Part shown: positions 29,909-44,319 of the stretch, piece after piece
Layout: each line of letters starts with the position of its first letter
Position numbering within the stretch: position 1 is the stretch's first letter
DNA from: an uncultured Chloroflexia bacterium
GTDB taxonomy: Bacteria; Chloroflexota; Limnocylindria; Limnocylindrales; CSP1-4
Assembly (NCBI GenBank): GCA_963713075.1
Contig: CAVQKO010000006.1
Location: forward strand, 644,408 to 708,407
Direction: 5' to 3'
DNA length: 64,000 nucleotides
Position numbers and translations under genes: made by a program
Notes under the pieces: generated by a model
Database searches by the model: none
Seen by the model: the letters and a program-made list of their open reading frames with translations, nothing else
What the model was told of the DNA's origin: nothing

Positions 29909-30010
29909 GCGACGTTCGCGACCTCGCTATGGGACCCGCTTGGAGGGCGGCAGCAGGCGCGCTCGGAGGTGATCGACCAGGCCTTTAGCTCACGGAGGAG
30001 TGGAGACAAC

Positions 30011-31081
30011 ATGGCCATCAATCGTGTGCTGCGGATCGCTGGCGCCCTGCTCGCCAGCGCCGCCATCGTGGTCGGCTGCTCGTCGAGTTCGTCGCCGAGT
30101 CCGGCCGCCAGCGGCGGCACCGGCTCCGGCACCGCTTCCGGGTGCCCGTACAAGTTCGCGGTCATTACCCACGGCGACACCGGCAGCTTCTGGAGTGTCG
30201 TCTACAAGGGCGCCCAGGACGCCTCCAAGGACACGGGCTGCACGCTGACCGAGGTCTACGGGTCGCAGCAGCAGGGCCAGGCGCAGCCTGACGACAACGC
30301 CGAGAACCAGGCGATCCAGGATGCCATCAACCAGAAGGTCGACGGCCTCGCCGTCTCCGACCACAACCCGAGCCTGATGAACCCGACCCTCGCCGGGGCC
30401 GTGAAGGCCGGCATCCCGGTCGTCCTGATCAACGCCGGCTGTGACGACGCCGACATCGCGGCCTCCGGCGCCATGACGTGCGTCGGCCAGCCGGAGTCGC
30501 TCGCGGGCAAGCAGGCTGGCGCCCGGTTCATGTCCGAGAACGCCAACAACGTCCTGTGCGTGATCCACCAGAGCGGCCAGAACCTGCTCGACCGCTGCAA
30601 CGGCATCGCGCAGGCGCTTGGCACCGGTGACACCTGCTCGACGGGCGACGCCCCGGCCTCCGGCCCGGCGTGCACTGAGCTCACCCTGAGCACGCCGAAC
30701 GCGGCGTCCAACCCGAGCGCCTCGGCCCAGCAGGTCACCGCGTACCTGCAGGCCCACCCGGGCATCAACGCCGTCATGACCCTCAACAACGCCATCGCGC
30801 AGGGCGTCCAGGCGGCGCTCCCGAGCGGCAGCACGATCAAGCTCGCGACCTTCGACCTCAACAGCTGGGCCATCTCAGCGGTCAAGGCCGGCACGCTCGA
30901 CTTCATCGTCGACCAGCAGCAGTACCTGCAGGGCTACCTGCCGATCGTCTTCCTCCAGCTCTACAAGGCCCACTACGGGGCGAGCGTCGGCGGCGGCACC
31001 ACCGTCGCGACCGGACCGCTCCTCGTGGACAAGACGAACGTCTCCAACGTGGAGGCCGGGGCCGCCGCCGGCGAGTCCTGA
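30011..31081 (+). CDS. Sugar ABC transporter substrate-binding lipoprotein
   Basis: A GGAGG RBS is followed by a lipoprotein signal with lipobox IVVGC. A periplasmic-binding-protein fold follows. Confidence 0.8.
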   Translation: MAINRVLRIAGALLASAAIVVGCSSSSSPSPAASGGTGSGTASGCPYKFAVITHGDTGSFWSVVYKGAQDASKDTGCTLTEVYGSQQQGQAQPDDNAENQAIQDAINQKVDGLAVSDHNPSLMNPTLAGAVKAGIPVVLINAGCDDADIAASGAMTCVGQPESLAGKQAGARFMSENANNVLCVIHQSGQNLLDRCNGIAQALGTGDTCSTGDAPASGPACTELTLSTPNAASNPSASAQQVTAYLQAHPGINAVMTLNNAIAQGVQAALPSGSTIKLATFDLNSWAISAVKAGTLDFIVDQQQYLQGYLPIVFLQLYKAHYGASVGGGTTVATGPLLVDKTNVSNVEAGAAAGES

Positions 31082-31143
31082 GCCGCCGCACTCCCAGCAA
31101 CGCACCAGGTTCTGCCCCGGGCGGGGATCCCCCGCCCGGGGCA

Positions 31144-32244
31144 GTGAGTAGCGAGGAGGCGGGCGACTCTGCCATGGACGTGCCCAATCCGACCAAGCCG
31201 GCCGAGCCCGCCGGCCAGACTGAACGCGTTGTCGCTGCGCGGGTCGTGACCCGCGTCTTCCGGCGGCCCGAGGTCGGGGCGGCGCTCGCCGCTGTCGCCA
31301 TCTTCCTCATCTTCGCCCTCAACCCCACCTCGAACCCACTCTGGGTCTCGCAGGCCGGCTTTGTCGGATGGCTCACCCAGGCGTGGCAGTTCGGGATCAT
31401 GGCCGTGCCCGTCGGCCTGCTGATGATCGGCGGCGAGTTCGACCTGTCCGCTGGCGTCATGACCGGTTCGACGGCCATCGTGATCGGCCTGCTGGCCAAC
31501 GGGTTCGGCTGGAACATCTGGCTGTGCATCGCGGTGTCCGCGGTGTTCGCTCTCCTGGTGGGGCTGTTCAACGGCCTCCTCGTCGTCCGGACCAAGCTGC
31601 CGAGCTTCATCGTCACGCTGGCCACGTTCTTCATCCTCCGAGGCACGTCGGTCGGCCTCGTCGAGGCGCTCAACGCCAACAGCACGGTCGTCACGGTGCT
31701 CAACCCGCCCGCCGGCTCGGATGTGGCCAAGGCCATCTTCGGCGGCACGGTGGGGGCCGCCCCGGCCTTCCCGGTCGCCCTGTTCTGGTGGCTCGGGGTG
31801 ACCATCCTCGGGATGGTCGTCCTCTCGCGGACCACCGTCGGCAACTGGATCTTCGCGGCCGGCGGCGAGCCCAATGCCGCCCGCAACGTCGGCGTTCCCG
31901 TCGGCAGCACCAAGATCCTGCTGTTCGTCTTCACCGCGCTCGCCGCCTGGCTCGTCGGCACGATCGAGTTCACCGCCGGCATGTCGGCGGTCTCCGAGCA
32001 GGGCGTCGGCTACGAGCTCTACTACATCGTCGCGGCGGTCGTCGGCGGCTGCCTGCTGACCGGCGGGTACGGGTCCGTGCTGGGCGCCTCGATCGGTGCC
32101 GCGATCATCGGCATGGCCCTCCAGGGGGTGATCTACGCACGCTGGCCCAGCCAGTGGGGGTTCGCCTTCCTCGGGATCCTGCTGCTGTTCGGGGTGATCG
32201 TGAACGCCGTGACGTTCCGTCAGGCACAGAGGGCACGTCGATGA
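31144..32244 (+). CDS. Sugar ABC transporter permease (branched TM, CUT2-like)
   Basis: A polytopic membrane protein whose stop overlaps the next gene's start (ATGA). Confidence 0.8.
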
Positions 32245-33137
32245 CCGGGAACAACGCTCCCGCCACCCAGGCGCCGGATGGGCGGCCGGCCGCCGGCGCC
32301 GTCCCCGTGCTCGAGGCGCGCCACGTCAGCAAGTACTTCGGCAGCGTCATCGCGCTCCATGACGTGTCGCTCCAGGTCAAGGCCGGCGAGGTGACCTGCG
32401 TCCTGGGGGACAACGGCGCCGGCAAGTCGTCGCTCATCAAGATGCTGTCCGGCGTGTTCCAGCCCGACGAGGGCGAGATCCTCGTTGACGGCACCCCGAT
32501 CCGGTTCTCCGGGCCGCGCGAGGCCCGGGCACACGGCATCGCGACCGTGTTCCAGGACCTCGCCACGGTGCCGATGATGTCGGTCTGGCGGAACTTCTTC
32601 CTCGGCCAGGAGCCGACCCGGTCGTTCGGCCCCATCCGGTTCCTCGACCAGGGCCACGCCAAGGACATCATGAAGGTCGAGATGGCCAAGATGGGCATCA
32701 ACGTCTCCGACCCGAACCAGTACGTGGGGACGCTGTCGGGCGGCGAGCGGCAGGCCGTCGCCATCTCCCGTGCGGTGTACTTCGGGGCCCGGGTGCTCAT
32801 CCTCGACGAGCCGACCTCGGCCCTCGGCGTGCGCCAGTCGGGCATCGTGCTCCGCTATGTCGTCCAGGCTCGCGACATGGGCCGGGCCGTGATCCTCATC
32901 ACGCACAACCCGCACCACGCCTACCCGGTCGGCGACCGCTTCGTGCTCCTCAAGCTGGGCAAGGTGATGGGGTCGTTCACCAAGGACCAGATCACCGTCG
33001 CCGAGCTGACCCAGATGATGGCCGGCGGCGAGGAGCTCGCCCAGCTCAGCCACGAGCTGCAGCGGTTGGGGGGCGACGAGCCGTCGCTCCGCGAGGTCGC
33101 CCAGGAGCTCGCCGAGGACGCCGCCGCGAACCCCTGA
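32241..33137 (+). CDS. Sugar ABC transporter ATP-binding protein (single NBD)
   Basis: Has Walker A (GDNGAGKSS), the LSGGERQ signature and Walker B ([12 protein letters not shown]). Confidence 0.85.
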
Positions 33138-33188: not shown

Positions 33189-34355
33189 CTACGGCCGGGC
33201 CGCGGGCTCGGCCGCCCAGGGGTCGATCACGACCTTGAGCGAGGTCGGGGCGATCGCGGTCGTCACCGCCTCCTCGACACGGTCGAGCGGGAAGCGGTGG
33301 GACACGAACTCCCGCCACGGGTACTCGTCGAGGGTGCGCGCCATCTGGCGCATCGAGGGGCCGTAGGCGCCTGCCTCCTGGCCCGGGATGCCGATCATCC
33401 GGATCCCCTTGCTGCACAGGTGCCGGTTGGGCGAGATCTCGACCGTGCCCAGGTCGCTGAAGTTGCCGGCCTCGACGTACACGCCGCCCGGCCGCAGGAG
33501 CTCGAGCGACTCGGGAACGGCCGCCGGGACGCCGGCGCACTCGACCACGACGTCGGCGCCGCGTCCGTGGGTGAGGTCGCGCACGAACGAGAGCAGGTCC
33601 GCGGCCGACACCGCCGTCCGGTCGACGGCGTGGTCGGCGCCGAGACGCCGCGCGAAGTCGAGGCGCATCCGCGAGAGGTCCACCGCGATCACCACGCCGG
33701 CGCCGAGCATCCGCGCCTTGGCGACGTGGCACAGCCCGAGCGGCCCCGTCCCGAACACGACCACCGTGTCCCCGAACTGGAAGCCCTCGCCCGGGAAGGA
33801 GCCGTACTGCTTGGCCCGGTCGAGGCCGATCGTGACCGCGATCACCTCCGCCAGGACCGCCACCTCGGACGGCAGGTCGTCGGGGACCCGGAAGATCTTG
33901 CTCCCCGGCAGCGCGTAGAGGTAGTGGGCCCAGCCGCCGAACAGGTGGGGCGGGTCGGCGGCCGAGATGGTGTTGCCGTAGTCGAGGATGTTCTCGCACA
34001 GCGTGTACGGCATGTCGTGGGTGCACGAGTAGCAGGTTCCGCAGACCAGGTTCGGGCTGACCACGACGCGGTCGCCGACGGCCAGCTCCTCACCGTCGAA
34101 GTCGAGGACCCTGCCGCCGATCGCGGCCACCGTGCCGACGTTCTCGTGGCCCTGGATGATGGGGAACGGCGTCGACGAGGGCTTGGCGGCGCCCGTGTAC
34201 TGCGACACGTAGCCCTCGAACGTGTGCTTGTCGGTGCCGCAGATGCCCGACAGCTCGTTCCGCACCAGGACGGCGCCCGGCCCGGGCTCGGGGACCGGAA
34301 ACTCGTGCACCTCGTAGCGGCGCGGTTCAACCAGCAGCGCGGCCCGTGCGCCCAT
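33189..34355 (-). CDS. Zn-dependent medium-chain dehydrogenase (sorbitol/idonate-dehydrogenase-like)
   Basis: Has the catalytic Zn ligand motif GHENVG, a structural Zn site (CGTCYSC) and a GTGPLG Rossmann motif. Confidence 0.8.
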   Translation of the reverse strand: MGARAALLVEPRRYEVHEFPVPEPGPGAVLVRNELSGICGTDKHTFEGYVSQYTGAAKPSSTPFPIIQGHENVGTVAAIGGRVLDFDGEELAVGDRVVVSPNLVCGTCYSCTHDMPYTLCENILDYGNTISAADPPHLFGGWAHYLYALPGSKIFRVPDDLPSEVAVLAEVIAVTIGLDRAKQYGSFPGEGFQFGDTVVVFGTGPLGLCHVAKARMLGAGVVIAVDLSRMRLDFARRLGADHAVDRTAVSAADLLSFVRDLTHGRGADVVVECAGVPAAVPESLELLRPGGVYVEAGNFSDLGTVEISPNRHLCSKGIRMIGIPGQEAGAYGPSMRQMARTLDEYPWREFVSHRFPLDRVEEAVTTAIAPTSLKVVIDPWAAEPAARP

Positions 34356-34443: not shown

Positions 34444-35451
34444 TCAGTCCGGCGGCGGCGCGGTCGAACGCCGCACGACCAGCGTGCAGGCGGTGGTGAT
34501 GGCGCTCCTGTCCTGGTCGCCCCCGATCATGGCCAGCAGCCGCTCGACGGCCAGCCGGCCCATCTCCAGGCGGGGCTGGGCCATGGTCGTGAGCGGCGGC
34601 GTGACCAGCTGCGCGAGCTCGAGATCATCGAAGCCCGCGATGCTGAGCTGCTCGGGGACCCGGATGCCGCGGTCGAGGATGGCGCGCAGACCCCCGATCG
34701 CCGCGAGGTCGTTGTAGAAGAAGATCGCGGTCGGCCGATGGGGGAGCAGCAGCTGCACGCCCTCGGCGCCGGCGTCGGCCGCCTCGCGAGCCCGGGGCGC
34801 GGCCACGAGCGCCGCGTCGACCTCGATCCCGGCCTGGCTGAGCGCCCGCTCGTAGCCGGCCTGGCGCGCCCCGCTCGCCAGCGACGCGCGGCCGATCGCC
34901 ACGTAGCCGATGCGACGGTGGCCGAGGCCGATCAGGTGCTCGGTGATCGCCATCGCGCCGGCCGCATCGTCGACCGCCACGGAGCTCGCAAGCGGCCGGT
35001 CGGGCACCAGCTCGGACCGCTCGGCGACGAACACGACCGGGATCCTCGGGTCGAGGAGGGCGTGGTTCTCGGCGAGGTTGGACGCCACGATGATCATCCC
35101 GTCGACACGGCGCTGCTGGAACATCCGGGCGACGTCGAACTCGCGCACGTCCGAATCGCGGGTGCTCGCGACAAGCAGGTGGTAGCCGGCCCTGACGGCT
35201 GCGCCCTCGATGCCGCGCATGAGGAGCCCGTTGTACGGGTCGGCGTAGTCGCGGACGATCAGCCCGAGCGTCAGCGTGCGCCGCGTGGCCAGGCTCTGAG
35301 CCGCGGCATTGGGGGTGAAGCCGGCCTCCCGGGCGAGCTCCTGGACGCGCGCCCGGGTCGCCGCGCTGATCCGGGGGTCGTCGCGGAGCGCCTTCGACAC
35401 GGTCGACGGAGCGACACCGGCTCGTCGAGCCAGCTCGTAGATGGAGTCCAC
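34444..35451 (-). CDS. LacI-family transcriptional regulator (second copy), divergent from the corrinoid operon
   Basis: The HTH is at the N-terminus (IYELARRAGVAPSTVSKAL), followed by a sugar-binding domain. Confidence 0.85.
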   Translation of the reverse strand: MDSIYELARRAGVAPSTVSKALRDDPRISAATRARVQELAREAGFTPNAAAQSLATRRTLTLGLIVRDYADPYNGLLMRGIEGAAVRAGYHLLVASTRDSDVREFDVARMFQQRRVDGMIIVASNLAENHALLDPRIPVVFVAERSELVPDRPLASSVAVDDAAGAMAITEHLIGLGHRRIGYVAIGRASLASGARQAGYERALSQAGIEVDAALVAAPRAREAADAGAEGVQLLLPHRPTAIFFYNDLAAIGGLRAILDRGIRVPEQLSIAGFDDLELAQLVTPPLTTMAQPRLEMGRLAVERLLAMIGGDQDRSAITTACTLVVRRSTAPPPD

Positions 35452-35600
35452 GGTACCTCTGGCGGAATGGCCGCTCGACGCCTTGCCCCGGGCAGGTGGG
35501 CCAAACTATACTCCGCGAAACCGGTTGAAATGCGACCGGAGACCCCGTCGAGGACGGTGGCGCCAGGCCCCGACCTCGCACCGAATCGCAGCTGTGGCCG

Positions 35601-36851
35601 GTGACGCGGAAGGGCGCAAACGTGGCTGATCGGACAATCAGGGTCGCCGTCGTCGGGGCCGGCATGGCGGGCAGGGCCCACGCGGCCGGCTACCGGAGCC
35701 TCCGCTCGCTCTATGGCGACGCCGTGCCCGGGGTCGAGCTGGTCGCGGTCGTCGACGCCAACCGGACGCTCGCCGACGACCTCGCGGACAAGTTTGGATT
35801 CGGGCGGGTGGAGACCAGATGGGAGGCCGTCGCCGAGGCCGACGACATCGATGCGGTGAGCGTCGTCCTCCCCAACAGCGAGCACCGGGCGGCCGTGGCC
35901 GGCCTCGTGTCGCGCGGCAAGGCGATCCTGTGCGAGAAGCCGGCCGCGCGGACGGCCGCCGAGGCCATGGCGATGGAGGCGGCTGTCGCGAAGGCGGGCG
36001 TCATCGCCAGCGTGGCCTTCACCCACCGGTTCGCGCCGCCGGTTGCCGCGGTCAAGCACCTCATCGACGAGGGCCGGCTCGGCGCGCCGCGCCAGCTGAT
36101 GAGCCGGTACCTCTCCGACGGCGGACGCGACGCCGACGTCCCGTTCACGTGGCGCCACGACCTGGCGCTGGCGGGCGGCGGATCGCTGGTGGACCTCGGC
36201 GCCCACAACCTCGAGGCCGCCCGGTTCATGCTCGGCGACGTCGCGGCGATCCGCGGCGCCGTCCTCTCGATCCGGGTCCCGGAGCGCCACCTCGCCCTCG
36301 GCGCCACGAGGGGCCACGAGAAGGCCGCCCTCTCGGACGAGGCGCGCCGCGTGACCACCGACGACGAGGCGATGTTCCTCGCCGAGTTCGAGAACGGGTG
36401 CGTCGGCGTGTTCACGACCTCGCGGGTGGCCACCGGCTTCAAGAACGCGACGGGGTTCGTCCTCGTCGGCTCCGAGGCCTCGGCCTCGTTCGACTGGGAG
36501 CGCCTGTCCGAGTTCGGCTGGGCCGACGGGTCGGCCGACCACTACACTGAGGGCTGGACCCGAGTCCTTCTCGGCGGCCAGCACCCGTATCTCGCCGAGG
36601 GCCTCGTGATGCCGGTCGCCGGCGTCGGCTTCGGCCTCGGCGACGCCTTCATCTTCCAGGCGGCCGACTTCGTGACGGCCGTCGCCACCGATACGCCCAG
36701 TCGAATCGCGTCCTCGTTCGCTGATGGCGTCGCCAACGCGCTGGTCCTCGACGCGGTGAAGCGCTCCGCCGCGGCCGGGGGGACAGCTGTCCTGATCGCC
36801 GACGAGCGCGAGCGCGCTGCCGCCGACTTGGCGGCGGAAGGAGCTGCCTGA
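35601..36851 (+). CDS. Gfo/Idh/MocA-family oxidoreductase, first gene of the corrinoid operon
   Basis: A Rossmann N-terminus (IRVAVVGAGMAGRAHAAGY) and EKP motif (ILCEKPAA) are present. The product is 416 aa. Confidence 0.8.
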   Translation: MTRKGANVADRTIRVAVVGAGMAGRAHAAGYRSLRSLYGDAVPGVELVAVVDANRTLADDLADKFGFGRVETRWEAVAEADDIDAVSVVLPNSEHRAAVAGLVSRGKAILCEKPAARTAAEAMAMEAAVAKAGVIASVAFTHRFAPPVAAVKHLIDEGRLGAPRQLMSRYLSDGGRDADVPFTWRHDLALAGGGSLVDLGAHNLEAARFMLGDVAAIRGAVLSIRVPERHLALGATRGHEKAALSDEARRVTTDDEAMFLAEFENGCVGVFTTSRVATGFKNATGFVLVGSEASASFDWERLSEFGWADGSADHYTEGWTRVLLGGQHPYLAEGLVMPVAGVGFGLGDAFIFQAADFVTAVATDTPSRIASSFADGVANALVLDAVKRSAAAGGTAVLIADERERAAADLAAEGAA

Positions 36852-37480
36852 TGCCCGCCGACCTCGCCGCCCTCACCGCCGCCGTGGAGGCCGGCGACCG
36901 CACCGCCGCCGCCGCGCTCACGCAGCAGGCGCTCGACGGCGGCGTCCCGCCCAAGGCGGTCCTCGACGCGATGACCGCCGCCATGGACGCGGTGGGCCGG
37001 CGGTTCCAGGAGGGCGAGCTCTTCGTCCCCGAGATGCTCATCAGCGCGCGGGCCATGAAGGCGGGCACCGCGATCCTCGAGCCCGCCCTGGTGGCGGCCG
37101 GGGTGGTGCCCGAGTTCACCGCGGTCGTGGGCACCGTCGAGGGCGACCTCCACGACATCGGCAAGAACCTCGTGGGCATGATGTGGAAGGGCGCCGGGTT
37201 CGAGGTCGTTGACCTCGGGGTCAACGTCCCCGCCGCCCGGTTCGCCGAGGCGGCCCGGGAGCGGGGCGCCCACATCGTCGGCGTCTCGGCGCTGCTCACC
37301 ACCACGATGCCCGGCATGCGCGGCGTGGTCGAGGCCGTCCGCGCGGCCGGGCTCACCGCGAGGGTCGTCGTCGGCGGCGCCCCCACCACCCCCGAGTTCG
37401 CCGCCCAGATCGGCGCCGACGGCCACGCCCCCGACGCCGGGGCCGCGGTGGACCTCGCCCGGCGCCTCCTGGCGGGCTGA
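36851..37480 (+). CDS. Cobalamin-binding corrinoid protein (B12-binding cap plus Rossmann B12-binding domain; MtaC/MttC/MetH-like)
   Basis: Has the canonical DxHxxG...S.L...G B12 motif (DLHDIGKNLV…GVSALLTT…VVVGG) preceded by a helical cap domain. Its start overlaps the upstream stop (TGATG). Confidence 0.8.
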   Translation: MPADLAALTAAVEAGDRTAAAALTQQALDGGVPPKAVLDAMTAAMDAVGRRFQEGELFVPEMLISARAMKAGTAILEPALVAAGVVPEFTAVVGTVEGDLHDIGKNLVGMMWKGAGFEVVDLGVNVPAARFAEAARERGAHIVGVSALLTTTMPGMRGVVEAVRAAGLTARVVVGGAPTTPEFAAQIGADGHAPDAGAAVDLARRLLAG

Positions 37481-37493
37481 GGACGGCCGGGCG

Positions 37494-38831
37494 ATGTCCG
37501 GGGCCACGACGTCGACGGGCACCCCGATCGCGGGCTCGACCGCCGGCCTGCAGGATGTGGAGTGGGCGATCACGCCCGACGAGCGCACGTACCTCCGCGA
37601 GCTCGCCGGGCGCCAGGCCGAGTACGCCGCGCTGCCGGTGATGGCCGAGCGGCGCCGGCAGTGGCTCGACCTCAACGACGGCAGGCCGAACGTCCGTCCG
37701 CCGTTCATCCTCGAGGCCTCGAACTTCATGTTCGAGCTGCTGCCGGACCGGCGCTACCACTGCCGGTCCGCGGCGGCCCAGGCCATCGAGAAGGAGCTCG
37801 TCCGGTACACGCGGCCGCACGAGGTGTGGCAGGACGACCGGGTGGTGCCCGGTGTGCTCGACTTCAGCTGGTTCCTCGACATCGACGAGTTCGGCCCCGA
37901 CGTGCGGGTCGGCCTCGAGATGGCCGCCGACGCCGAGGGCAACGAGGTGGGCTACGGGTTCCAGCACCCGATCACGGACCTCGAGGCGGACCTGCCCAGG
38001 CTCCGGCCGGCACGGGTCGCGCTCCACCGGGAGCGCTCGCTCGCCTGGAGGGCCTTCGTGGAGGAGGTCCTGGGCGACGTCCTCCCCGTCCGCCTCGTCG
38101 TGGTCTGGAACGACGCAAACACGCTCGCCCAGCGCCTCGTGCACCTCATGGGCATGGAGGCCTTCTTCATCGCCTGCTACGAGCAGCCCGACGCGGTCCA
38201 CGCCGTCATGGCGTACCTGCGCGACAACGCACTCTCGATCATGCGCCAGGAGGACGAGCTCGGAATCCTCGGCCTCAACAACGACCACCAGGAGGTCTGG
38301 TGGTCGGGCCACAACTACACGAGCCTGCTCCCCGGGCCCGGCTTCGACCCGGGGCACGTGACGTGGAGGGACCGCTGGCAGGCGACCAACCTCCAGGAGG
38401 CGACCGGCATGCGGCCATCGATGGCGTCGGAGTTCCTCCACCCCTACGTCCACGAGATCGCCCAGCCCGTGGGCCTCCTCTACTACGGCTGCTGCGAGGC
38501 GGTCCACCAGAGCTGGGACGACATCCGCACGCTCCCGAACCTGCGGAAGGTCTCGATCAGCCAGTGGACCGACGAGGCGTTCATGGGCGAGGCCCTGCGC
38601 GGCACGGACCTCGTCTACTCGCGCAAGCCCAACCCGAACTACCTCTCGCTCGACGAGGTCCTCGACGGCGATGCATGGGCCGCCCACATCCGCACGACCC
38701 TCGAGGCGACGCGCGGCTGCTCGGTGGAGTTCCTCGTGCGCGACGTCTACACCCTGCACCGCAACCTCGACAATGCACGCCGTGCCGCGTCGATTGCCGA
38801 AGAGGTGATCGACCGCCACTGGGGCGCGTAG
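37494..38831 (+). CDS. Putative substrate:corrinoid methyltransferase (about 445 aa; URO-D/MtaA-like or MttB-like, family uncertain)
   Basis: ATG lies 14 nt after the corrinoid-protein stop. The protein is large, soluble and TIM-barrel-sized with a possible Zn site (H…YYGCCEAVH). It is operonic with a corrinoid protein, and no other partner type is evident. Confidence 0.5.
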   Translation: MSGATTSTGTPIAGSTAGLQDVEWAITPDERTYLRELAGRQAEYAALPVMAERRRQWLDLNDGRPNVRPPFILEASNFMFELLPDRRYHCRSAAAQAIEKELVRYTRPHEVWQDDRVVPGVLDFSWFLDIDEFGPDVRVGLEMAADAEGNEVGYGFQHPITDLEADLPRLRPARVALHRERSLAWRAFVEEVLGDVLPVRLVVVWNDANTLAQRLVHLMGMEAFFIACYEQPDAVHAVMAYLRDNALSIMRQEDELGILGLNNDHQEVWWSGHNYTSLLPGPGFDPGHVTWRDRWQATNLQEATGMRPSMASEFLHPYVHEIAQPVGLLYYGCCEAVHQSWDDIRTLPNLRKVSISQWTDEAFMGEALRGTDLVYSRKPNPNYLSLDEVLDGDAWAAHIRTTLEATRGCSVEFLVRDVYTLHRNLDNARRAASIAEEVIDRHWGA

Positions 38832-38850
38832 CGCGCGCAGGAGCCCGGCG

Positions 38851-39768
38851 ATGCCCAGCGATCCGACCTACCCGAGCCTGCTCCTCGGCACCGCGCCCGA
38901 CAGCTGGGGCGTGTGGAACCCGTCGGGCGACCCGCTCCAGACGCCCTGGGAGCGCTACCTCGACGAGGTGCAGCGGGCCGGCTACCGGTACAGCGAGCTC
39001 GGGCCCTTCGGGTACGTCCCCGCGGACCCCGGCGTTGTGCGCGAGGAGTACGCCAAGCGGGGGCTCACCCTCACGGGCGGCACCGTCTTCGCGGCGCTCC
39101 ACAAGGGCAAGGACGCGCTCGCGAAGGCCAAGGCGGCGTGCGACGCCGAGATGGCCGTCATCGGGCCCAACGGCGCCCGGCACCTCGTCATCCTGCCCGA
39201 GGGTTACACCGACATGGACGGCAACGTCACCGGACCGACGACGCTCGCCGGCGACGAGTGGGCGAGCCTCACCGGCGGCATGAGCGAGCTCGGCCGGTAC
39301 CTGGCCGGCGAGCACGGCGCCGCGCTCGTGTTCCACAGCCACGCCGACAGCCACGTCGGCACCCAGGCCGAGATCGAGCGCTTCCTCGACGCCACCGACC
39401 CCGATGCCGTGGGGTTCTGCCTCGACACCGGGCACGTCGCCTACTGCGGCGCCGACAGCCTCAGGATCGTCGCCGACTACCCCGACCGCGTGCAGTACAT
39501 CCACCTCAAGCAGGTGGACACGGCGATCCTCGCCCGCGTCCGCGGAGAGGGGCTCGGCTTCGCCCCGGCGGTGCGCCTCGGCGCCATGGTCGAGCCGCCG
39601 CTCGGCGGGCCCGACATGCCGAGCCTGCTCGCCGCGCTGGCCGGCCTCGGCCGCGAGCTGTACTGCATCGTCGAGCAGGACATGTACCCGTGCGCGTTCG
39701 ACCGGCCGCTGCCGATCGCGCGTCGCACCTACGACTACTTCAGGACCCGCAGGATGCGGGTCGCTTAG
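38851..39768 (+). CDS. Sugar-phosphate isomerase/epimerase (xylose-isomerase-like TIM barrel), third paralog
   Basis: CAGGAG RBS. Has the metal-site residues (HSHADSHVG, LDTGHV) and is 305 aa. Confidence 0.75.
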   Translation: MPSDPTYPSLLLGTAPDSWGVWNPSGDPLQTPWERYLDEVQRAGYRYSELGPFGYVPADPGVVREEYAKRGLTLTGGTVFAALHKGKDALAKAKAACDAEMAVIGPNGARHLVILPEGYTDMDGNVTGPTTLAGDEWASLTGGMSELGRYLAGEHGAALVFHSHADSHVGTQAEIERFLDATDPDAVGFCLDTGHVAYCGADSLRIVADYPDRVQYIHLKQVDTAILARVRGEGLGFAPAVRLGAMVEPPLGGPDMPSLLAALAGLGRELYCIVEQDMYPCAFDRPLPIARRTYDYFRTRRMRVA

Positions 39769-39851: not shown

Positions 39852-40820
39852 TCACGCGGCGTAGGCCACCGCCACCACCGGGATCAGCACCAGCGTCGCG
39901 ATCGTCGCCACCGACAGCGTGTCGGTCACGTAGGCGCGCTCGCCATCGTCCGCGCGCGGTCCCAGGTACAGCGGCAGGACGAACGGCGGCGGCAGCACGG
40001 CCATCGTCATCACGGCTGCGCCGAACAGCCGGTCGAGGCCCAGCAGCCCCTCCACCACCAGCCGGTCGAACGCGAGCGCGAGCACGATCCACAGCGCGAG
40101 CCGGACCGCGATCGTCGCGCCCGGCCGGGTCAGCCCACCCGGCCGCAGGGACGTCGTGTAGCCGATGACGACCGCGATGAGCGGCGTCGTGCACGCGCCG
40201 AGCAGCCCGAGCGCCGCGGGGACGGCGCCCAGGATGGGGGAGCCGGCGAGCACGTCGCCGAGGCCCACGAGCCGTCCGGCGACACCGCCCAGGATGGCCA
40301 GGATCACGGGTGTCGTGATGAAGGTGCGCGCCGTTGCGCCCAGACCCGGCCGGACGCCGGTCGACCGGCGGACGACCACGGTCGCGAGCACGAAGAACAC
40401 GAACAGGACCTGGCCGAGGTCGATGATCCCGAAGCGGTACAGCTGGTCCTGCCCGAAGATCCCGCCGTAGATCGCGTAGCCCAGCATGCCCGCCTCGAAG
40501 CCTGTCAGCAGCGGGGCGCCATAGGGCGACCGCTCGCCGACCGGCCGCAGCAGCATCCCCCCGACGGCGAGGACGGCCACGGAACTCAGGAAGACCGCGG
40601 CCACGACCGGCAGGTAGCGCGCTTGGAGGTCGACGTGGAGGAATGTGAGGAACAGTGCTGAGGGCAGCGTGATCGTCAGCACCAGACGCCGGAGGTCGGC
40701 CACCGTGGACGCCGAGAGCCATGCCCGCCGGCGGAGCAGCCAGCCGAGGGCGAACAGCAGCAGGATCGGCAGGACCCGGCCGAGTGCGTCGAGGATCAGG
40801 CCCATGGCGGCGGAGCGCAC
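39852..40820 (-). CDS. AEC-family (auxin-efflux-carrier/malate permease-like) membrane transporter
   Basis: Has about 10 TM helices, with N- and C-terminal halves resembling the AEC fold. Confidence 0.7.
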   Translation of the reverse strand: MRSAAMGLILDALGRVLPILLLFALGWLLRRRAWLSASTVADLRRLVLTITLPSALFLTFLHVDLQARYLPVVAAVFLSSVAVLAVGGMLLRPVGERSPYGAPLLTGFEAGMLGYAIYGGIFGQDQLYRFGIIDLGQVLFVFFVLATVVVRRSTGVRPGLGATARTFITTPVILAILGGVAGRLVGLGDVLAGSPILGAVPAALGLLGACTTPLIAVVIGYTTSLRPGGLTRPGATIAVRLALWIVLALAFDRLVVEGLLGLDRLFGAAVMTMAVLPPPFVLPLYLGPRADDGERAYVTDTLSVATIATLVLIPVVAVAYAA

Positions 40821-40856: not shown

Positions 40857-42563
40857 CTAGAAGAGGCCGACGACGTTGCCGTCGGCGTCGATGTCGATGC
40901 GCTCGCCGCCGGGGCGGGAGTTGAGGCCGGGCATCGTGCGCATGTCGCCCAGGATCGGGGTGATGAAGCCCGCGCCCGCGTAGAGGCGGACCTCGCGGAC
41001 GGGGATGCGGAAGCCGGACGGCGCTCCGAGCAGCTTCGCGTCGTGGCTCAGCGAGTACTGCGTCTTGGCCATGCAGACCGGGAGGCCCGCGTAGCCCATC
41101 GCCTCGAACTGGGCGAGCTGCTTGTTGGCGGCCGGGCTGTAGTCCACGCCGTCGGCGCCGTAGATCTTGGTCGCGATGGCCTCGATCTTGCCCTTGAGCG
41201 GCATGTCGTCGGGGTACAGGAGGTGGAAGTCGGGCGAGCCCTCCTCGGCGGCGGCCCAGACGGCCTGCGCCAGGTCCTCGGCGCCGGCCCCGCCGTCGGT
41301 GAAGTGGCGCGCCTCGACCGCGTCGCGAGCGCCGGCCGCGAGGGCGGCCTCGCGGATCGCGGCGATCTCCTCGGCCGTGTCGGTCGGGAAGATGTTGATC
41401 GCCACGACCACGGGCACGCCATAGGAGCGGACGTTCTCGATCTGCTTTCGGAGGTTCGCCGCGCCCCGCCGCACGCCCTCGGGGTTGTTCTCGAGCAGCG
41501 CCGGGTCGAGCGGCTTGCCGGCCACGATCCTGCCCACGCCGCCGTGCATCTTGAGCGCGCGGACCGTGGCCACGATCACGGCCGCGTCGCAGCGCAGGCC
41601 CGACGCGCGGCACTTGATGTCGAAGAACTTCTCGGCGCCCATGTCGGCCCCGAAGCCGGCCTCGGTCACCAGCACGTCCGAGCCGGCGAGCGCCGCGCGG
41701 TCCGCGATGATGCTGTTGTTGCCGTGGGCGATGTTGGCGAACGGGCCGCAGTGGACGAACGCGGGGCCGCCCTCGAGGGTCTGCATGAGGTTGGGCTTGA
41801 GCGCGTCCTTGAGCAGGACCGCCATCGAGCCCGCCACCCTGAGGTCCTCGGCGGTGATGGGCGTGCCGTCGCGCCTGGTGGCCAGGACGATCCGGCCGAG
41901 GCGGGCGCGCAGGTCCCGCAGGTCCTTGGCCAGGGCGAGGATCGCCATGACCTCGGACGCGACGGTGATCACGAACGACGTCTGGCGGGGGTAGCCGTTG
42001 TCCTTGCCGCCGAGGCCCACCACGATGTCGCGCAGGGCGCGGTCGCTGATGTCCACGACGCGCGGCCAGAGGATGTCGTTGGCGTCGATGCCGAGCTCGT
42101 TGCCGTGGTGGACGTGGTTGTCGATGAACGCGGCCGCGAGGTTGTGCGCCGCGCCGATCGCGTGCGTGTCGCCGGTCAGGTGGAGGTTGAAGTCCTCCAT
42201 CGGGATGACCTGGCTGTAGCCGCCGCCGGCCGCGCCGCCCTTGATCCCGAACACCGGGCCGAGCGACGGCTGGCGGAGCGCCACGGTGGCCTTCTTGCCG
42301 ATCCGGTTGAGACCCTGGGCGAGGCCGACCGTCGTGGTGCTCTTGCCCTCGCCCAGCGGGGTGGGGGAGATGGCCGTCACCAGCACGTACTTGCCCCGCG
42401 GGCGTTCGCGCTCAAGCCGCTCGATGCCCGCGACGGTGATCTTGGCCTTCGTGCTCCCGTAGAGCTCGACCTCGTCGTCGTGGTACCCCAGCTCGTGGGC
42501 CACCTCGACGATGGGCCGGGGCTTGACCGAGCGGGCGATCTCAAGGTCGGACGGGAACGACAT
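40857..42563 (-). CDS. fhs: Formate--tetrahydrofolate ligase
   Basis: Has the TPLGEGKSTTTVGL P-loop and is 568 aa. Its start abuts the folD stop. Confidence 0.9.
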   Translation of the reverse strand: MSFPSDLEIARSVKPRPIVEVAHELGYHDDEVELYGSTKAKITVAGIERLERERPRGKYVLVTAISPTPLGEGKSTTTVGLAQGLNRIGKKATVALRQPSLGPVFGIKGGAAGGGYSQVIPMEDFNLHLTGDTHAIGAAHNLAAAFIDNHVHHGNELGIDANDILWPRVVDISDRALRDIVVGLGGKDNGYPRQTSFVITVASEVMAILALAKDLRDLRARLGRIVLATRRDGTPITAEDLRVAGSMAVLLKDALKPNLMQTLEGGPAFVHCGPFANIAHGNNSIIADRAALAGSDVLVTEAGFGADMGAEKFFDIKCRASGLRCDAAVIVATVRALKMHGGVGRIVAGKPLDPALLENNPEGVRRGAANLRKQIENVRSYGVPVVVAINIFPTDTAEEIAAIREAALAAGARDAVEARHFTDGGAGAEDLAQAVWAAAEEGSPDFHLLYPDDMPLKGKIEAIATKIYGADGVDYSPAANKQLAQFEAMGYAGLPVCMAKTQYSLSHDAKLLGAPSGFRIPVREVRLYAGAGFITPILGDMRTMPGLNSRPGGERIDIDADGNVVGLF

Positions 42564-43487
42564 CTACTTGGCCTCCAGAACAGGGACTGCAAGGGAGTGG
42601 GCGCCCAGCGGGATCGTGCCTGTGGCCTTCGCCCGGGCCGCCTGGACCAGGTGCGTGAGCAGGATGGCGTTGGTGAGCGGTCCGACGCCGCCGGGGACTG
42701 GGGTGATCGCGAAGGCCACGCGCGCCGCGCTCTCGAAGTGGACGTCGCCGACGAGCTTGCCGTCGACGACGTTGATGCCGACGTCCACGACGACGGCGCC
42801 GGGCTTGAGCATGTCGCCGGTGATGAAGTTCGCCTTGCCGATGGCGACGATGACGATGTCCGCCGTGGCGAGGATGGCCGGCAGGTCCTGCGTCTTGCTG
42901 TGGCAGACGGTCACAGTGGCGTTCTCGCGCAGCATGAGCATCGCCGCCGGCTTGCCGATCACGTTGGAGCGCCCCACGACCACGCAGTGCTTGCCCGCGA
43001 TGGGGATCCCCGAGTGCTTGAGGATCTCGACGCTCGCGTGCGCGGTGGCCGGCAGGAACCCGTCGTAGCCGAGCGAGAGGAGCCCCGCGTTGAGCGGGTG
43101 GATGCCGTCGATGTCGCGCGTCGGGTCGAGCGTGTCGATCACCGCCCGCAGGCCGATCCCCTTGGGCAGGGGCTGCTGGACGATGATGCCGGCGACCGTG
43201 GGGTCGGCCTGGAGGTCCTCGAGGGCCCGGCTGACGTCGGCCTCCGTCGAGTCCGCGGGGAGCTCCACGAGCCGGTCGCCGATGCCCACTAGGCGGCAGC
43301 CGTCGAGGATCTTGTGCAGGTAGACGAGCGAGGGCGCGTCGGCGCCGACGACCAGCACCGCGAGCGTGGGCTGGAAGCCGAAGTCGCCCTTGAACGCGGC
43401 CACGTCCGCCGCCACCTGCTCGCGGATGGCGGTCGCCACCGGGCCTCCCCGCAGCAGCCGCGGGCCTTCGTCCATCAAGCCGGTCAT
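42564..43487 (-). CDS. folD: Bifunctional 5,10-methylene-THF dehydrogenase / 5,10-methenyl-THF cyclohydrolase
   Basis: Has the FolD fold with GRSNVIGKP and an IIVQQPLP-type motif. ATG at 43487 is preceded by a GAGGGA RBS. It is directly upstream of, and coupled to, fhs. Confidence 0.9.
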   Translation of the reverse strand: MTGLMDEGPRLLRGGPVATAIREQVAADVAAFKGDFGFQPTLAVLVVGADAPSLVYLHKILDGCRLVGIGDRLVELPADSTEADVSRALEDLQADPTVAGIIVQQPLPKGIGLRAVIDTLDPTRDIDGIHPLNAGLLSLGYDGFLPATAHASVEILKHSGIPIAGKHCVVVGRSNVIGKPAAMLMLRENATVTVCHSKTQDLPAILATADIVIVAIGKANFITGDMLKPGAVVVDVGINVVDGKLVGDVHFESAARVAFAITPVPGGVGPLTNAILLTHLVQAARAKATGTIPLGAHSLAVPVLEAK

Positions 43488-43617
43488 GCGTCCCTCGTCG
43501 GTTCCGCCCGGGGTCGGCCCGGCGCCGGGCGCCCAGTGTCGCACCGGACGGCCCGGTCGAGCCGAGCCATCCGGCAGGTTGTTGACAGTTTACCGTCCCC
43601 GCCAGCGGACACGCCGG

Positions 43618-44181
43618 CTATCGCGCCACGCGGTAGCGGAGGTAGACGACCTTCGAGTTGAAGGTGCGGGTCTCCACGAGTTCCAGATCCACTCCCCGCC
43701 CGCGCTGCGGGAAGTACGGGGTGCCGCCGCCAGCGAGCACCGGGTAGACCCTGAGCCGGTACTCGTCGACGAGGCCCAACGCGGCTGCCTCGGCGGCGAG
43801 CGTCGCGCCGCCGATCGCGATGTCGCCCTCGCCCGGCTCCGCTCGCAGGCGCTCGATCTCCTCCGCGAGGCCGCCGGAGGCCAGGCGGGCATTGCCCTGC
43901 ACCGCGGACAGCGTGGTGGAGAACACCACCTTCGGCAGCGCCTTCCAGATCGCGGCCCACTCGAGTTCTGCAGAGTCGAATGGTGGATCCTGGTCAGTCG
44001 TCTCCCAGTACAGCATCGTCTCGTACAGCCGTCGCCCCAGCAGGTGGGCGCTGACCCCTCGGATCTCGTCGGTCACGAAGCGGAAGACCTCCTCGTCGGG
44101 CGGCGGCGCAGTGATCTCGCCGTCCGGCCCGACGATGTAGCCGTCGAGCGAGACGCCCATCGAAAAGGTCACGCTGCGCAT
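43618..44181 (-). CDS. Dihydrofolate-reductase-like protein (RibD C-terminal domain family)
   Basis: The MRSVTFSMGVSLDGYI…GRRLYE…GGATL pattern matches the DHFR/RibD_C reductase fold. The product is 187 aa. Confidence 0.75.
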   Translation of the reverse strand: MRSVTFSMGVSLDGYIVGPDGEITAPPPDEEVFRFVTDEIRGVSAHLLGRRLYETMLYWETTDQDPPFDSAELEWAAIWKALPKVVFSTTLSAVQGNARLASGGLAEEIERLRAEPGEGDIAIGGATLAAEAAALGLVDEYRLRVYPVLAGGGTPYFPQRGRGVDLELVETRTFNSKVVYLRYRVAR

Positions 44182-44319
44182 CTGATGTCCTCCTTGGTAA
44201 CGGGCTCGACAATACTGCCGGGCCCGCAGGATTCATCCTGACCGCGTACCGGGCGGGCGAGCTCGGCGGCGACTGGGCCCCATCGATCCAGCGCGGTCGC
44301 CGGCCCGGGGGCGGTCCCG

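Follow-up and report, generated by a model that had tools for sequence, protein, structure and literature searches.

A corrinoid protein paired with a divergent URO-D-fold protein in a sugar/cyclitol operon of Chloroflexota: a candidate B12-dependent methyl-transfer system

Corrinoid O-demethylases are known from anaerobes as three-component systems: MtvABC of Moorella, Odm of Acetobacterium, and MtoABCD of Methermicoccus (PMC8630106). In these systems a substrate:corrinoid methyltransferase (MT1) of ~47-48 kDa adjoins a corrinoid protein (CP) of ~22 kDa, and a separate MT2 passes the methyl group to a (tetrahydro)pterin. The locus described here has a similar CP and candidate MT1, and in its relatives a pterin-binding MT2 lies beside the locus. 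The differences are that the candidate MT1, a 445-residue protein that we call X445, is in a distinct family unrecognised by Pfam; that no MtoD/RamA activating enzyme occurs in the window (the whole 64 kb stretch analysed) or in Pfam-annotated related loci; and that the genes lie in a Chloroflexota sugar/cyclitol operon that has a LacI regulator and an ABC importer, whereas the known systems act on aromatic methyl ethers in acetogens and methanogens. The presumed methyl donor would be an aliphatic ether here, as against a phenolic ether there.

In an aerobic marine bacterium, Ruegeria pomeroyi, the MtgBCD system has a dispersed MT1/CP/MT2/RamA arrangement (PMC12478193). The likeness to our locus lies in the aerobic heterotrophic host, the separately encoded MT1, CP, pterin-binding MT2 and activase, the tetrahydrofolate (THF)-linked C1 oxidation, and the nearness of the CP/MT2 core to methionine-related genes. 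Such dispersal in an aerobe is a precedent that counts for methyl transfer by CP and X445. Unlike X445, which has a URO-D fold and sits in a carbohydrate operon, the MT1 of this system is an MttB-family protein (PF06253) acting on glycine betaine, and no RamA or MetF2 was identified in our locus.

Two catabolic systems provide further comparisons. Rhizobia degrade rhizopine (3-O-methyl-scyllo-inosamine) via moc genes, and a ferredoxin oxygenase complex takes part in the catabolic model given for them (PMC10107442, citing Bahar 1998 and Rossbach 1994). The moc genes resemble our locus in having MocA (Gfo/Idh/MocA), the binding-protein-dependent importer MocB, a regulator, and O-methyl handling, and in feeding the inositol pathway. 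MocC is IolE-like, and the oxygenase complex is MocDEF, which serves the demethylation step; an oxygen-independent corrinoid system would replace the oxygenase here. The levoglucosan enzymes LgdA/LgdB1/LgdB2/LgdC (PMC7676230) are similar in that levoglucosan dehydrogenase is the enzyme nearest to our Gfo/Idh/MocA dehydrogenase (Gfo), whose partner is a xylose-isomerase-like TIM barrel (XI-TIM). Gfo nevertheless scores 240 bits against LGDH, far under the equivalog cutoff of 650, XI-TIM is nearest to IolE, and levoglucosan loci have neither a CP nor a URO-D-like gene.

The source genome is that of a soil bacterium of the Chloroflexota (Limnocylindria), not of the actinobacterial type that a first-pass annotation had supposed; the loci closest to the window belong to Chloroflexota MAGs, named Candidatus Limnocylindrales in their sources. 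The operon runs Gfo, CP, X445, XI-TIM, with a LacI-family gene divergent from it (Table 1). The annotated xylose-isomerase-like barrel and divergent LacI were both recovered by Pfam, as was the proposed inositol-catabolic setting, in the form of IolD-, IolE- and IolB-like genes; the window also holds a second LacI gene and two further Gfo/Idh/MocA genes. The Gfo stop does overlap the CP start (TGATG, within ...GCCTGATGCCC...). The spacer between the CP stop (37478-37480) and the X445 ATG is 13 nt, not 14 nt as first given, and AGGACGG precedes X445; the gap from X445 to XI-TIM is 19 nt and contains AGGAG.

Table 1. Features of the locus, in window coordinates
Feature	Position	Strand	Matches and remarks
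IolB/KduI	17256-18170		
Aldehyde dehydrogenase	19389-20915		
IolE-like gene	23404-24303		
IolD-like TPP enzyme	26975-28915		
IolE-like gene	28919-29821		
CUT2-type sugar/cyclitol ABC transporter	29969..33137	+	PF13407, ABC_tran; binding protein 29969-31081, permease 31144-32244, ATPase 32241-33137
Zn-dependent alcohol/polyol dehydrogenase (ADH; IolM-like)	33189..34355	-	PF08240 + PF00107
LacI-family transcriptional regulator, divergent from operon	34444..35451	-	PF00356 + PF13377/PF00532
Conserved promoter/operator-like block ACTATACTCCGCGAAACCGGTTGAAAT	35505..35531	+	
Gfo, Gfo/Idh/MocA NAD(P)-dependent sugar/cyclitol dehydrogenase	35601..36851	+	PF01408/PF22725/PF02894
CP, 209 aa, cobalamin-binding	36851..37480	+	PF02607 + PF02310, DxHxxG; helical cap and Rossmann B12-binding domain
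X445, unclassified URO-D-fold family member, candidate substrate:corrinoid methyltransferase (MT1)	37494..38831	+	
XI-TIM, xylose-isomerase-like TIM barrel (IolE-like dehydratase, isomerase or lyase)	38851..39768	+	PF01261
AEC/Mem_trans-like membrane transporter	39852..40820	-	weak PF03547 match
Formate-tetrahydrofolate ligase (Fhs)	40857..42563	-	PF01268 855 bits; NF010030 above cutoff
FolD, methylene-THF dehydrogenase/methenyl-THF cyclohydrolase	42564..43544	-	PF00763 + PF02882

Both domains of the CP scored above cutoff (PF02607, 71 bits; PF02310, 96 bits), and its translation carries the base-off/His-on signature DLHDIG (DxHxxG), SALLTT and VVVGGAP, bearing out the annotated cobalamin-binding motif behind a helical cap. 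The methyltransferase-associated architecture also held: the best matches were MtgC, MtbC, the Moorella CP 1y80, MttC and a D. hafniense CP, and among PDB entries 1y80 (178 bits), followed by MttC, 4jgi and the MetH B12 domain. Scores fell below the NCBIfam cutoffs for MtgC (176 vs 370 bits), MtbC (164 vs 310), pyl_corrinoid (159 vs 350) and MtaC (156 vs 215). By sequence the CP is of the methyltransferase-cognate type, yet in no named orthologous group.

X445 proved harder to place. It had no Pfam-A match at E<=0.01 and no NCBIfam match, MttB (PF06253) and MtaB included, so the profile searches against URO-D and MTTB proposed earlier gave nothing at threshold; PF01208 gave nothing even at E<=10, and 24 of 30 relatives matched it only weakly (best E 4e-4). 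The expected methyltransferase-family homology was found at the level of fold and profile: X445 has the URO-D/MtaA fold, a URO-D-type (beta/alpha)8 barrel, and profile-level homology to URO-D-family proteins. Identity to MtaA, a methylcobamide methyltransferase of the URO-D family (PF01208; structure 4ay7), is 13%, with no PF01208 hit above threshold. X445 exceeds it in length by ~100 residues, having a helical extension at the N terminus and an insertion with a beta-hairpin. A zinc site had been predicted, and its Cys-Cys/His elements are present as invariant G332-C333-C334-E335 and H338 (family motif GCC(E/D)xxH at 332-338), but X445 does not keep the His-x-Cys...Cys zinc motif that is canonical for MtaA-type enzymes, a point against the methyl-transfer reading. 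In hhalign alignments G332-C333-C334 falls on H-S-C of URO-D-family neighbours; X445 lacks the His of the HxC site because Gly aligns at that position, and it has a vicinal Cys-Cys pair instead. The family has no conserved Cys at the last-strand position, and H422 and C90 are not conserved in a sister subfamily (X445-B, below). An alternative Cys-Cys/Glu/His metal site is possible. Superfamily-invariant residues lie mostly on or just after predicted barrel strands, where TIM-barrel active sites lie, and this was counted in favor of an MT1 role.

Gene association is what makes X445 a candidate MT1. The close spacing of CP and X445 with the other operon genes (the TGATG overlap and the 13-nt spacer) speaks for a joint function, and the pair is kept in loci L001, L002, L005, L006 and L074, behind different transporters. 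X445-B is 28-30% identical to X445 over the full length and shares with it GCC(D/E), SRKPNP and KD(I/V)ST. It directly follows a CP 82-85% identical to the window CP in L086, L089 and L091, and in L088 it is in one operon with a CP 88% identical to the window CP. L088, L089 and L091 also have a CUT2 transporter, a Gfo gene and an XI-TIM gene, the XI-TIM copies in L088 and L089 being 77-78% identical to that of the window. Thus the pairing does recur in independent sugar-type operons, including those of subfamily B, but the annotated four-gene arrangement is not uniformly conserved, since several close relatives have lost the CP and most distant members have none nearby.

In L003 the operon CP is deleted except for residues 2-7 and 183-208; in L004 residues 3-104 are left, frameshifted and with DxH changed to NxR, so that different deletions removed the CP in the two loci. 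The CP is absent from the operon in L081 and L083 as well. X445 is intact in all four loci, with a dN/dS of 0.15-0.39 indicating purifying selection. The order transporter-ADH-Gfo-X445-XI-TIM forms one same-strand unit in L003, L004 and L081, these relatives having the IolM-like dehydrogenase between transporter and Gfo; L083 has transporter-ADH-X445, with a Gfo gene downstream on the opposite strand, and the orthologous permease of L081 and L083 contains PF02653. Among 73 distant X445 homologues (~50% identical, from other phyla), a gene with a B12 domain lies within 10 kb in 2. CP loss and the CP-less distant homologues count against the reading of CP and X445 as a methyltransferase pair. 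Bona fide HxC URO-D-family genes at the same distant loci are likewise without an adjacent CP, so a missing nearby CP is weak evidence.

No pterin-binding, MtrH, MTHFR or RamA-type gene was found among the Pfam-scanned ORFs of the window, in agreement with the annotated lack of MtrH-like and RamA-type partners, and tblastn with the MT2 of a relative gave no match in the window; these absences count against the methyl-transfer reading. The missing methyl-corrinoid:THF methyltransferase does adjoin the locus in relatives: in the close relatives L074, L005 and L085 a PF00809 pterin-binding methyltransferase lies just past Fhs/FolD, accompanied in L074 by a second CP, and in L086 it lies one gene past CP/X445-B, with a formate transporter next. 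RamA/RACo-type activase families were absent from window ORFs and Pfam-annotated related loci; an activase could be encoded elsewhere in the genome. Fhs and FolD, immediately downstream of the operon, bear on the methyl-transfer hypothesis, and they adjoin the operon in L005, L074 and L085 also. They are housekeeping genes, adjacent only in the nearest relatives, which counts against giving them weight. The first-pass annotation had omitted this Fhs/FolD pair. The AEC/Mem_trans-like transporter is kept at the same position in L005 and L074.

The sugar-processing genes resemble known enzymes at a distance. Among solved structures, levoglucosan dehydrogenase 6a3f (211 bits) comes closest to Gfo and scyllo-inositol/L-glucose dehydrogenase 5ya8 comes next; the IolG score of Gfo (TIGR04380) is 105 against a cutoff of 355 bits. 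XI-TIM scored 136 bits against the IolE cutoff of 290 (TIGR04379) and 69 bits against PDB IolE 3cny. Sequence scores thus indicate that Gfo and XI-TIM are relatives of IolG and IolE rather than canonical enzymes. The IolM-like dehydrogenase is likewise under cutoff for scyllo-inosose 3-dehydrogenase (NF041097, 168 vs 450 bits), and the LacI regulator is under every NCBIfam equivalog cutoff. The block ACTATACTCCGCGAAACCGGTTGAAAT is the sole long block shared by the window, L074 and L005, the rest of the intergenic region having diverged. It comprises a -10-like TATACT (35507-35512) followed by an imperfect LacI-type palindrome, GAAACCGGTTGAAA (35517-35530), a putative LacI operator.

X445 might act without any cofactor, as a cyclitol or keto-sugar decarboxylase, isomerase or hydrolase with a URO-D barrel as in UroD, working with Gfo, ADH and XI-TIM while the CP is an accessory or passenger (a B12 store, sensor or anti-repressor). 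The CP-less distant loci give this proposal weak support, as HxC URO-D genes there are also CP-less, and we think it unlikely. The CP is far nearer to methyltransferase corrinoid proteins than to CarH (176 vs 42 bits); a pterin-binding MT2 lies beside these loci; two subfamilies 29% identical both directly follow near-identical CPs, which makes chance or a regulatory role hard to accept; and the invariant vicinal cysteines point to a methyltransferase-typical metal site. To our knowledge, UroD has no metal. The same cysteines, together with the fold match to MtaA, could instead mark X445 as a thiol-type (MT2-like) zinc enzyme, a methylcobalamin:thiol methyltransferase or, in reverse, an S-demethylase, acting on an S-methylated sugar such as 5-methylthioribose or supplying a thiol acceptor or methionine synthesis with methyl groups, rather than an O-demethylase. 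The vicinal Cys-Cys after Gly is similar to the zinc site in the homocysteine domains of MetH and BHMT, and thiols are substrates of the URO-D-family enzymes MtaA and MtsA. Both the regulator (RbsR among its best matches) and the binding protein (PF13407) are of the ribose type, and relatives carry an adjacent second CP, MT2 and Cys/Met PLP enzyme, an arrangement like the split methionine synthase of PMC12478193. We judge the thiol alternative less likely still: the surroundings of the locus are inositol-catabolic and include two polyol dehydrogenases and an IolE-like enzyme, the operon itself has no sulfur-metabolism gene, nothing homologous to the PF02574 homocysteine domain turned up, and the PLP enzyme lies several kb off and occurs also where MT2 is absent.

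Another possibility is that Gfo and XI-TIM break the C-O bond through oxidation with beta-elimination, the route known from levoglucosan and 3-keto-glycoside breakdown, and so release methanol or another small alcohol; X445 and CP, as a methanol:corrinoid methyltransferase analogous to MtaB/MtaC, would then salvage the C1 unit to THF. Besides the similarity of Gfo to levoglucosan dehydrogenase, there is precedent in LgdA/LgdB1, where such a dehydrogenase is paired with beta-eliminating 'sugar phosphate isomerase' enzymes (PMC7676230), and the CP and both X445 subfamilies occur together with a Gfo gene and a highly conserved XI-TIM. Salvage would also explain why CP and X445 are dispensable for carbon-skeleton catabolism and are lost piecemeal. 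A dispensable salvage module predicts the opposite of what is seen, namely retention of X445 where the CP is lost; X445 has no similarity to MtaB; and the deep divergence of the two MT1 subfamilies, whose operons differ in their Gfo genes and transporters, suggests that each MT1 is specific to its substrate and that they are not one shared methanol enzyme. We judge methanol salvage the least likely of the three alternatives.

From its sequence context, then, X445 probably works with the CP as a methyltransferase, and whether the two make up the initial half of a methyl-transfer system that depends on a corrinoid, set in a sugar/cyclitol operon, seems to us about evenly balanced. Context is the sole guide to the substrate, also for pinitol and the similar compounds that the first-pass annotation proposed, and an O-methylated cyclitol or sugar is a tentative choice that falls a little short of an even chance. 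Aliphatic methyl ethers do not readily give up a methyl group to Co(I), which counts against O-demethylation; the only precedent we know of is zinc-activated methanol in MtaB. Were the methyl-transfer reading right, the adjacent CUT2 ABC transporter would import a methylated polyol, for which an O-methyl-inositol or an O-methyl sugar is the most plausible choice, and X445, with its divergent URO-D/MtaA fold and a putative metal site on Cys333-Cys334, would move the methyl group to the Co(I) form of the CP. The pterin-binding MT2, presumably encoded elsewhere in the genome but beside the locus in relatives, would pass it to tetrahydrofolate, and FolD and formate-THF ligase would oxidise the C1 unit. 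Gfo, the IolM-like dehydrogenase and the IolE-like TIM barrel would turn the skeleton into an iol-pathway intermediate, and the divergent LacI repressor would control the operon via the conserved palindrome. X445 probably represents a new MT1 family in a carbohydrate context, a plausible though unproven assignment, and the locus suggests an undescribed B12-dependent demethylation of methylated sugars or cyclitols.

The genes of the operon and its divergent regulator are present as the first-pass annotation placed them, including the TGATG in which the end of the Gfo/Idh/MocA dehydrogenase gene (Gfo) overlaps the start of the corrinoid protein gene (CP). The four plus-strand genes are closely packed, with 13 nt between CP and the gene for the 445-aa protein (X445) and 19 nt between X445 and the xylose-isomerase-like TIM barrel gene (XITIM); each of these two spacers has a Shine-Dalgarno-like purine run. 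Upstream are an ABC sugar transporter of the CUT2 type, a Zn-dehydrogenase resembling IolM (ADH), IolD- and IolE-like genes, IolB, an aldehyde dehydrogenase, more Gfo genes and a second LacI, so the description of the surroundings as an inositol-catabolic island was correct. The suggestion of an actinobacterial-type genome is rejected; the nearest loci belong to Chloroflexota MAGs labelled Candidatus Limnocylindrales in their sources. Directly 3' of the operon, and unmentioned in the earlier annotation, are an AEC-type transporter, formate-THF ligase (Fhs) and FolD genes.

Genes of the operon and the divergent regulator (window coordinates)
Feature	Position	Strand	Remarks
LacI-family gene	34444-35451	-	divergent from operon
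Gfo/Idh/MocA dehydrogenase (Gfo)	35601-36851	+	
CP, 209 aa	36851-37480	+	PF02607 cap; PF02310 B12-binding domain; DLHDIG / SALLTT / GG signature
X445, 445 aa	37494-38831	+	
XITIM, xylose-isomerase-like TIM barrel	38851-39768	+	

The nearest known enzymes to Gfo are levoglucosan dehydrogenase and scyllo-inositol/L-glucose dehydrogenase, and the nearest to XITIM is IolE, every score being under the equivalog cutoffs; XITIM also weakly matches the cobamide-remodelling enzyme CbiR (22-bit). CP has all features of its type, yet scores under every named equivalog cutoff. Cross-genome alignment of the LacI-Gfo spacer revealed a block common to three genomes, ACTATACTCCGCGAAACCGGTTGAAAT, containing a -10-like hexamer and then a LacI-type imperfect palindrome; the site GAAACCGGTTGAAA, likewise found through cross-genome alignment, is operator-like and a candidate for LacI binding. 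A repeat search of this spacer gave no long inverted repeat, and an Rfam search of 28-45 kb gave no cobalamin riboswitch and no other Rfam family. Elsewhere in the window (15431-18170), the longest M14 carboxypeptidase ORF (minus strand) overlaps IolB/KduI (plus strand) by ~440 nt, so that its start is probably over-extended; the peptidase-iolB neighbourhood recurs in L090 (L numbers denote loci retrieved from other genomes, with locus-internal positions).

Direct sequence annotation of X445 gave nothing: there was no match in Pfam-A or NCBIfam, nor among PDB sequences, whether searched with the single sequence (phmmer) or with a family profile. A word-indexed search returned >1,200 homologues, and all source-named matches were called 'hypothetical protein'; a full HMM search gave 1,956 clusters at 50% identity, 1,198 of them at E<=1e-10, with lengths of no more than about 450 aa among the best 150 listed. 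Relationships became visible solely by fold search and profile-profile comparison. The AlphaFold2 model, built from a 30-sequence alignment, was confident (pLDDT 84, pTM 0.86), and Foldseek against the PDB placed it closest to the methylcobalamin:CoM methyltransferase MtaA (4ay7, E 1e-7), then to uroporphyrinogen decarboxylases. Sub-threshold PF01208 matches occurred in 24 of 30 family members. Comparison of the X445 profile with URO-D-family proteins that neighbour distant X445 homologues and have the classical HSCG zinc motif gave 96.3% probability (E 1.7e-9), the alignment setting G332-C333-C334 of X445 on H-S-C. X445 therefore belongs to the URO-D/MtaA superfamily as a branch that has diverged deeply, having the URO-D fold in common with it but falling outside PF01208 (by score and HxC motif), MttB and MtaB.

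By following close homologues of the window CP we reached a sister subfamily, X445-B. Its full-length identity to X445 is 28-30% (E 1e-35 to 1e-41), and the motifs (F/Y)GCC(D/E)PLH, SRKPNP and KD(I/V)ST are common to both. The zinc His is lost in the X445 family and the vicinal Cys-Cys is invariant. Residues invariant or conservatively replaced across both subfamilies are E/D74, E99, D115, W295, Q301, G332-C333-C334-E/D335, K352, S354, S356, W358, S376-R377-K378-P379, E412, D417 and T420, most of which lie on or just past predicted barrel strands, i.e., in the active-site region of a TIM barrel. In the homocysteine domains of MetH and BHMT, a Gly followed by vicinal Cys-Cys marks the zinc site, and Cys333/Cys334 are a candidate metal (zinc) site in X445.

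The CP/X445 pair is kept in five close relatives (L001, L002, L005, L006, L074), and persists despite other upstream transporters, namely a CUT1-type binding protein in L006 and a distinct CUT2 system in L002. CP homologues at least 80% identical form >100 clusters. In L086, L089 and L091, X445-B lies directly 3' of CPs that are 82-85% identical to the window CP, and in L088 a CP 88% identical shares an operon with a frameshifted X445-B copy. The L088, L089 and L091 operons also have a CUT2 sugar transporter, a Gfo/Idh/MocA gene and an XI-TIM gene; their Gfo proteins are only about 27% identical to the window Gfo, and the XI-TIM proteins of L088 (8274-9194) and L089 (4040-4969) are 77-78% identical to XITIM. 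XI-TIM is thus well kept beside MT1-like and Gfo partners that are merely about 27-30% identical, and is tightly linked to CP. Two long-diverged MT1-like subfamilies thus have near-identical CP and XI-TIM partners in parallel sugar-type operons, which is the modular pattern familiar from substrate-specific substrate:corrinoid methyltransferases (MT1) that share one type of corrinoid protein. Outside Chloroflexota too, X445 and X445-B homologues co-occur: in a PVC-group MAG (L036:8692-11326) the two are adjacent and divergent, and LacI and Gfo genes come next.

The methyl-corrinoid:THF methyltransferase (MT2; pterin-binding, PF00809) that the first-pass annotation reported missing has indeed no copy at the expected slot in the window, but stands beside the locus in four relatives. 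The complete MAG chromosome that contains L074 has the order Gfo-CP-X445-XITIM, AEC, Fhs, FolD, XI-TIM, then another CP (about 70% identical) and a pterin-binding protein with PF00809; the pterin-binding gene likewise follows FolD in L005 and L085. In L086 the order is CP, X445-B, AraC, pterin-binding gene and formate/nitrite-family transporter. The MT2 slot is filled in the window by a RibD_C gene and a gene for an HExxH membrane protein, so that MT2, if present at all, is encoded elsewhere. This segment (43618-46860), in which the HExxH protein is membrane-anchored, of 846 aa and without a Pfam match, corresponds in relatives to XI-TIM, an optional second CP (CP2), pterin-binding MT2 and TMEM175 between FolD and a Cys/Met PLP enzyme; it is a local gene replacement. 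No MTHFR step was found in the window.

In L086, from a Limnocylindria MAG, two P450 gene fragments accompany the 85%-identical CP, X445-B, AraC and MT2 (4609-12073), with a GH63-like glycosidase after the transporter, and the whole has the look of a full methyl-transfer locus in compact form, neighbouring an oxygenase. In L090 (6191-11503) a MerR-family gene precedes a stand-alone, 85%-identical CP, whose immediate surroundings include IolB, an aldehyde dehydrogenase and a transaldolase-like gene; the arrangement could be a CarH-like split regulator or another CP copy in an iol cluster. The Nanopore-derived contig of L085 has many fragmented genes at 1-9200 (IolD, Fhs, FolD, Gfo), probably from frameshift errors, and apparent pseudogenes in such MFD/ERZ contigs call for caution.

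CP is not a constant partner of X445. All that is left of CP between Gfo and X445 in L003 is residues 2-7 joined to 183-208 (9267-9396). L004 has residues 3-104 at this place (9710-10017), frameshifted but also with a large deletion and motif changes, the cobalt-ligand motif DLHDIG having become NLRDVG. L081 has a 31-codon ORF alone between Gfo and X445, and in L083 X445 directly follows ADH. The scars in L003 and L004 rule out CP as a late insertion and make it ancestral to the clade's operon, and the losses are independent deletions. X445 is intact in the CP-less operons, and is under purifying selection like that in CP-containing operons (dN/dS 0.15-0.39).

Farther afield, a B12-domain gene lies within 10 kb in just 2 of 73 loci with ~50%-identical X445 homologues (from Anaerolineae, Verrucomicrobiota, Planctomycetota, Lentisphaerota, Latescibacterota, Armatimonadota and others); a CP search near these homologues (phmmer, six-frame ORFs) found L062 plus a weak B12-domain match in L042, and none else. 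Neighbours in the distant loci are very diverse and often carbohydrate-related (GH31, apiosidase-like, altronate dehydratase, Gfo, other URO-D-family genes), the commonest Pfams at the +/-1 positions being URO-D (5/99) and GH31 (4/99). No universally conserved neighbourhood was found across the 73 loci, so that the four-gene arrangement is clade-specific. Seven Anaerolineae/Chloroflexia loci (L016, L019, L026, L031, L042, L057, L080) have, at about position 10000, a GH31 glycosidase and ROK-type kinase with X445, continuing with two unannotated conserved proteins, a further URO-D-like protein (HLHSCS) and an SDR; these glycan loci contain several URO-D-like genes and, bar the weak L042 match, no corrinoid protein in the flanks retrieved.

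Two readings of the CP-less loci were weighed. X445 may need no corrinoid protein; or genomes may carry several nearly identical CPs, so that losing one copy is tolerable, since a single CP normally serves both MT1 and MT2. L074 carries two CPs within 8 kb. Genuine URO-D-family genes of the HxC type in those distant loci likewise have no CP nearby, hence CP adjacency is not the rule in those phyla. We favour complementation in trans because the pairing of CP with X445 and with X445-B recurs and MT2 is adjacent. Any final model has to fit the repeated loss of CP and the family's CP-less majority.

The same evidence bears on the main rival, in which X445 is a cofactor-independent enzyme and CP a passenger or regulator. 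It gains from the reading of CP-less operons and distant loci as CP-independent, but recurrent pairing in two subfamilies and the adjacent MT2 speak against it, and we consider it unlikely. That CP is chiefly a regulator of the CarH/AerR type is unlikely on scores, and the idea survives within this rival. Somewhat less probable is that X445 is a thiol-type methyltransferase acting on S-methyl sugars or tied to methionine synthesis. Lower still we place cleavage of the ether by Gfo and XITIM through oxidation and beta-elimination, as in the levoglucosan pathway (PMC7676230), with X445 and CP salvaging methanol. Pure coincidence of the CP/X445 pairing is very unlikely because it recurs in both subfamilies. 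Fold, remote homology and recurrent gene association strengthen the methyltransferase-module part of the original interpretation; the full explanation, a corrinoid-dependent methyl-transfer pair in a sugar/cyclitol operon, we judge evenly balanced, and an O-methylated polyol as substrate is a suggestion from context.

In the proposed mechanism, the ABC transporter would import the methylated polyol, and a Lewis-acid metal on Cys333/Cys334 of X445 (plus Glu335, His338 or another carboxylate) would activate the ether oxygen for movement of the methyl group onto Co(I)-CP. The sole aliphatic O-methyl donor precedent known to us is zinc-activated methanol in MtaB. Alternatively, the translationally coupled Gfo might oxidise first, making the leaving group a more acidic enediol(ate), which would account for the constant Gfo partner. 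A pterin-binding MT2 would then hand the methyl group to THF, from which FolD and Fhs would lead on to formate and yield ATP. The demethylated skeleton would be turned by Gfo, XITIM (IolE-like) and the IolM-like dehydrogenase into an inosose-type intermediate for the neighbouring IolE/IolD/IolB/IolA genes. For D-pinitol, demethylation would give D-chiro-inositol, and oxidation and isomerisation would lead to scyllo-inosose, as Bacillus IolG and IolI do.

Among the known methyl donors of corrinoid-dependent systems are methanol, methylamines, quaternary amines, methylthiols, halomethanes and aryl methyl ethers. For sugar methyl ethers, the routes on record rely on oxygenases, either P450s or a MocDEF-type system; MocDEF is the oxygenase that removes an O-methyl group, and MocC of the rhizopine locus is IolE-like. 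In logic, the module is nearest to the MT1/CP/MT2 O-demethylases of acetogens and Methermicoccus (PMC8630106) and to the aerobic MtgBCD system; in R. pomeroyi, an aerobic bacterium, the MtgB/MtgC/MtgD/RamA components are dispersed, a direct precedent for scattered components, and the CP and pterin-binding protein also serve methionine synthesis (PMC12478193). In pathway context it is nearest to the rhizopine moc locus, which links the inositol pathway with an importer and a Gfo/MocA dehydrogenase (PMC10107442). P450s demethylate 6-O-methyl-galactose (PMC6292453, PMC10033563), and a recent study of bacterial pinitol use identified no demethylase (PMC9788770). In our literature search no paper described corrinoid-dependent demethylation of methyl ethers of carbohydrates or cyclitols. 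The three-component logic is known; the MT1 family, substrate class and context would be new.

Should the substrate guess prove wrong, a family with the URO-D fold and no Pfam model that recurs beside corrinoid proteins is still a concrete annotation target. In legumes and conifers, O-methyl-inositols rank among the major soluble carbon compounds, and methyl-ether sugars block glycan degradation. Tentatively, and with more doubt than belief, we propose that X445 founds a large unrecognised family of metal-dependent methyltransferases (~2,000 clusters at 50% identity in Chloroflexota, PVC phyla, Armatimonadota and others) for O2-independent demethylation of aliphatic O-methyl cyclitols and sugars, such as pinitol, other O-methyl-inositols and the methyl-ether sugars of plant and algal glycans. 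In Limnocylindria these enzymes would use a shared CP, and in other groups perhaps corrinoids that are free or distantly encoded. If true, this would be the demethylation step so far missing for bacterial use of abundant plant methyl-cyclitols, a counterpart of the P450 and MocDEF oxygenases that needs no oxygen, and the family would be a new one among MT1s, acting on aliphatic ethers. It would also give about 2,000 clusters of 'hypothetical proteins' a testable function, and link B12 availability to carbohydrate turnover by soil and freshwater Chloroflexota.
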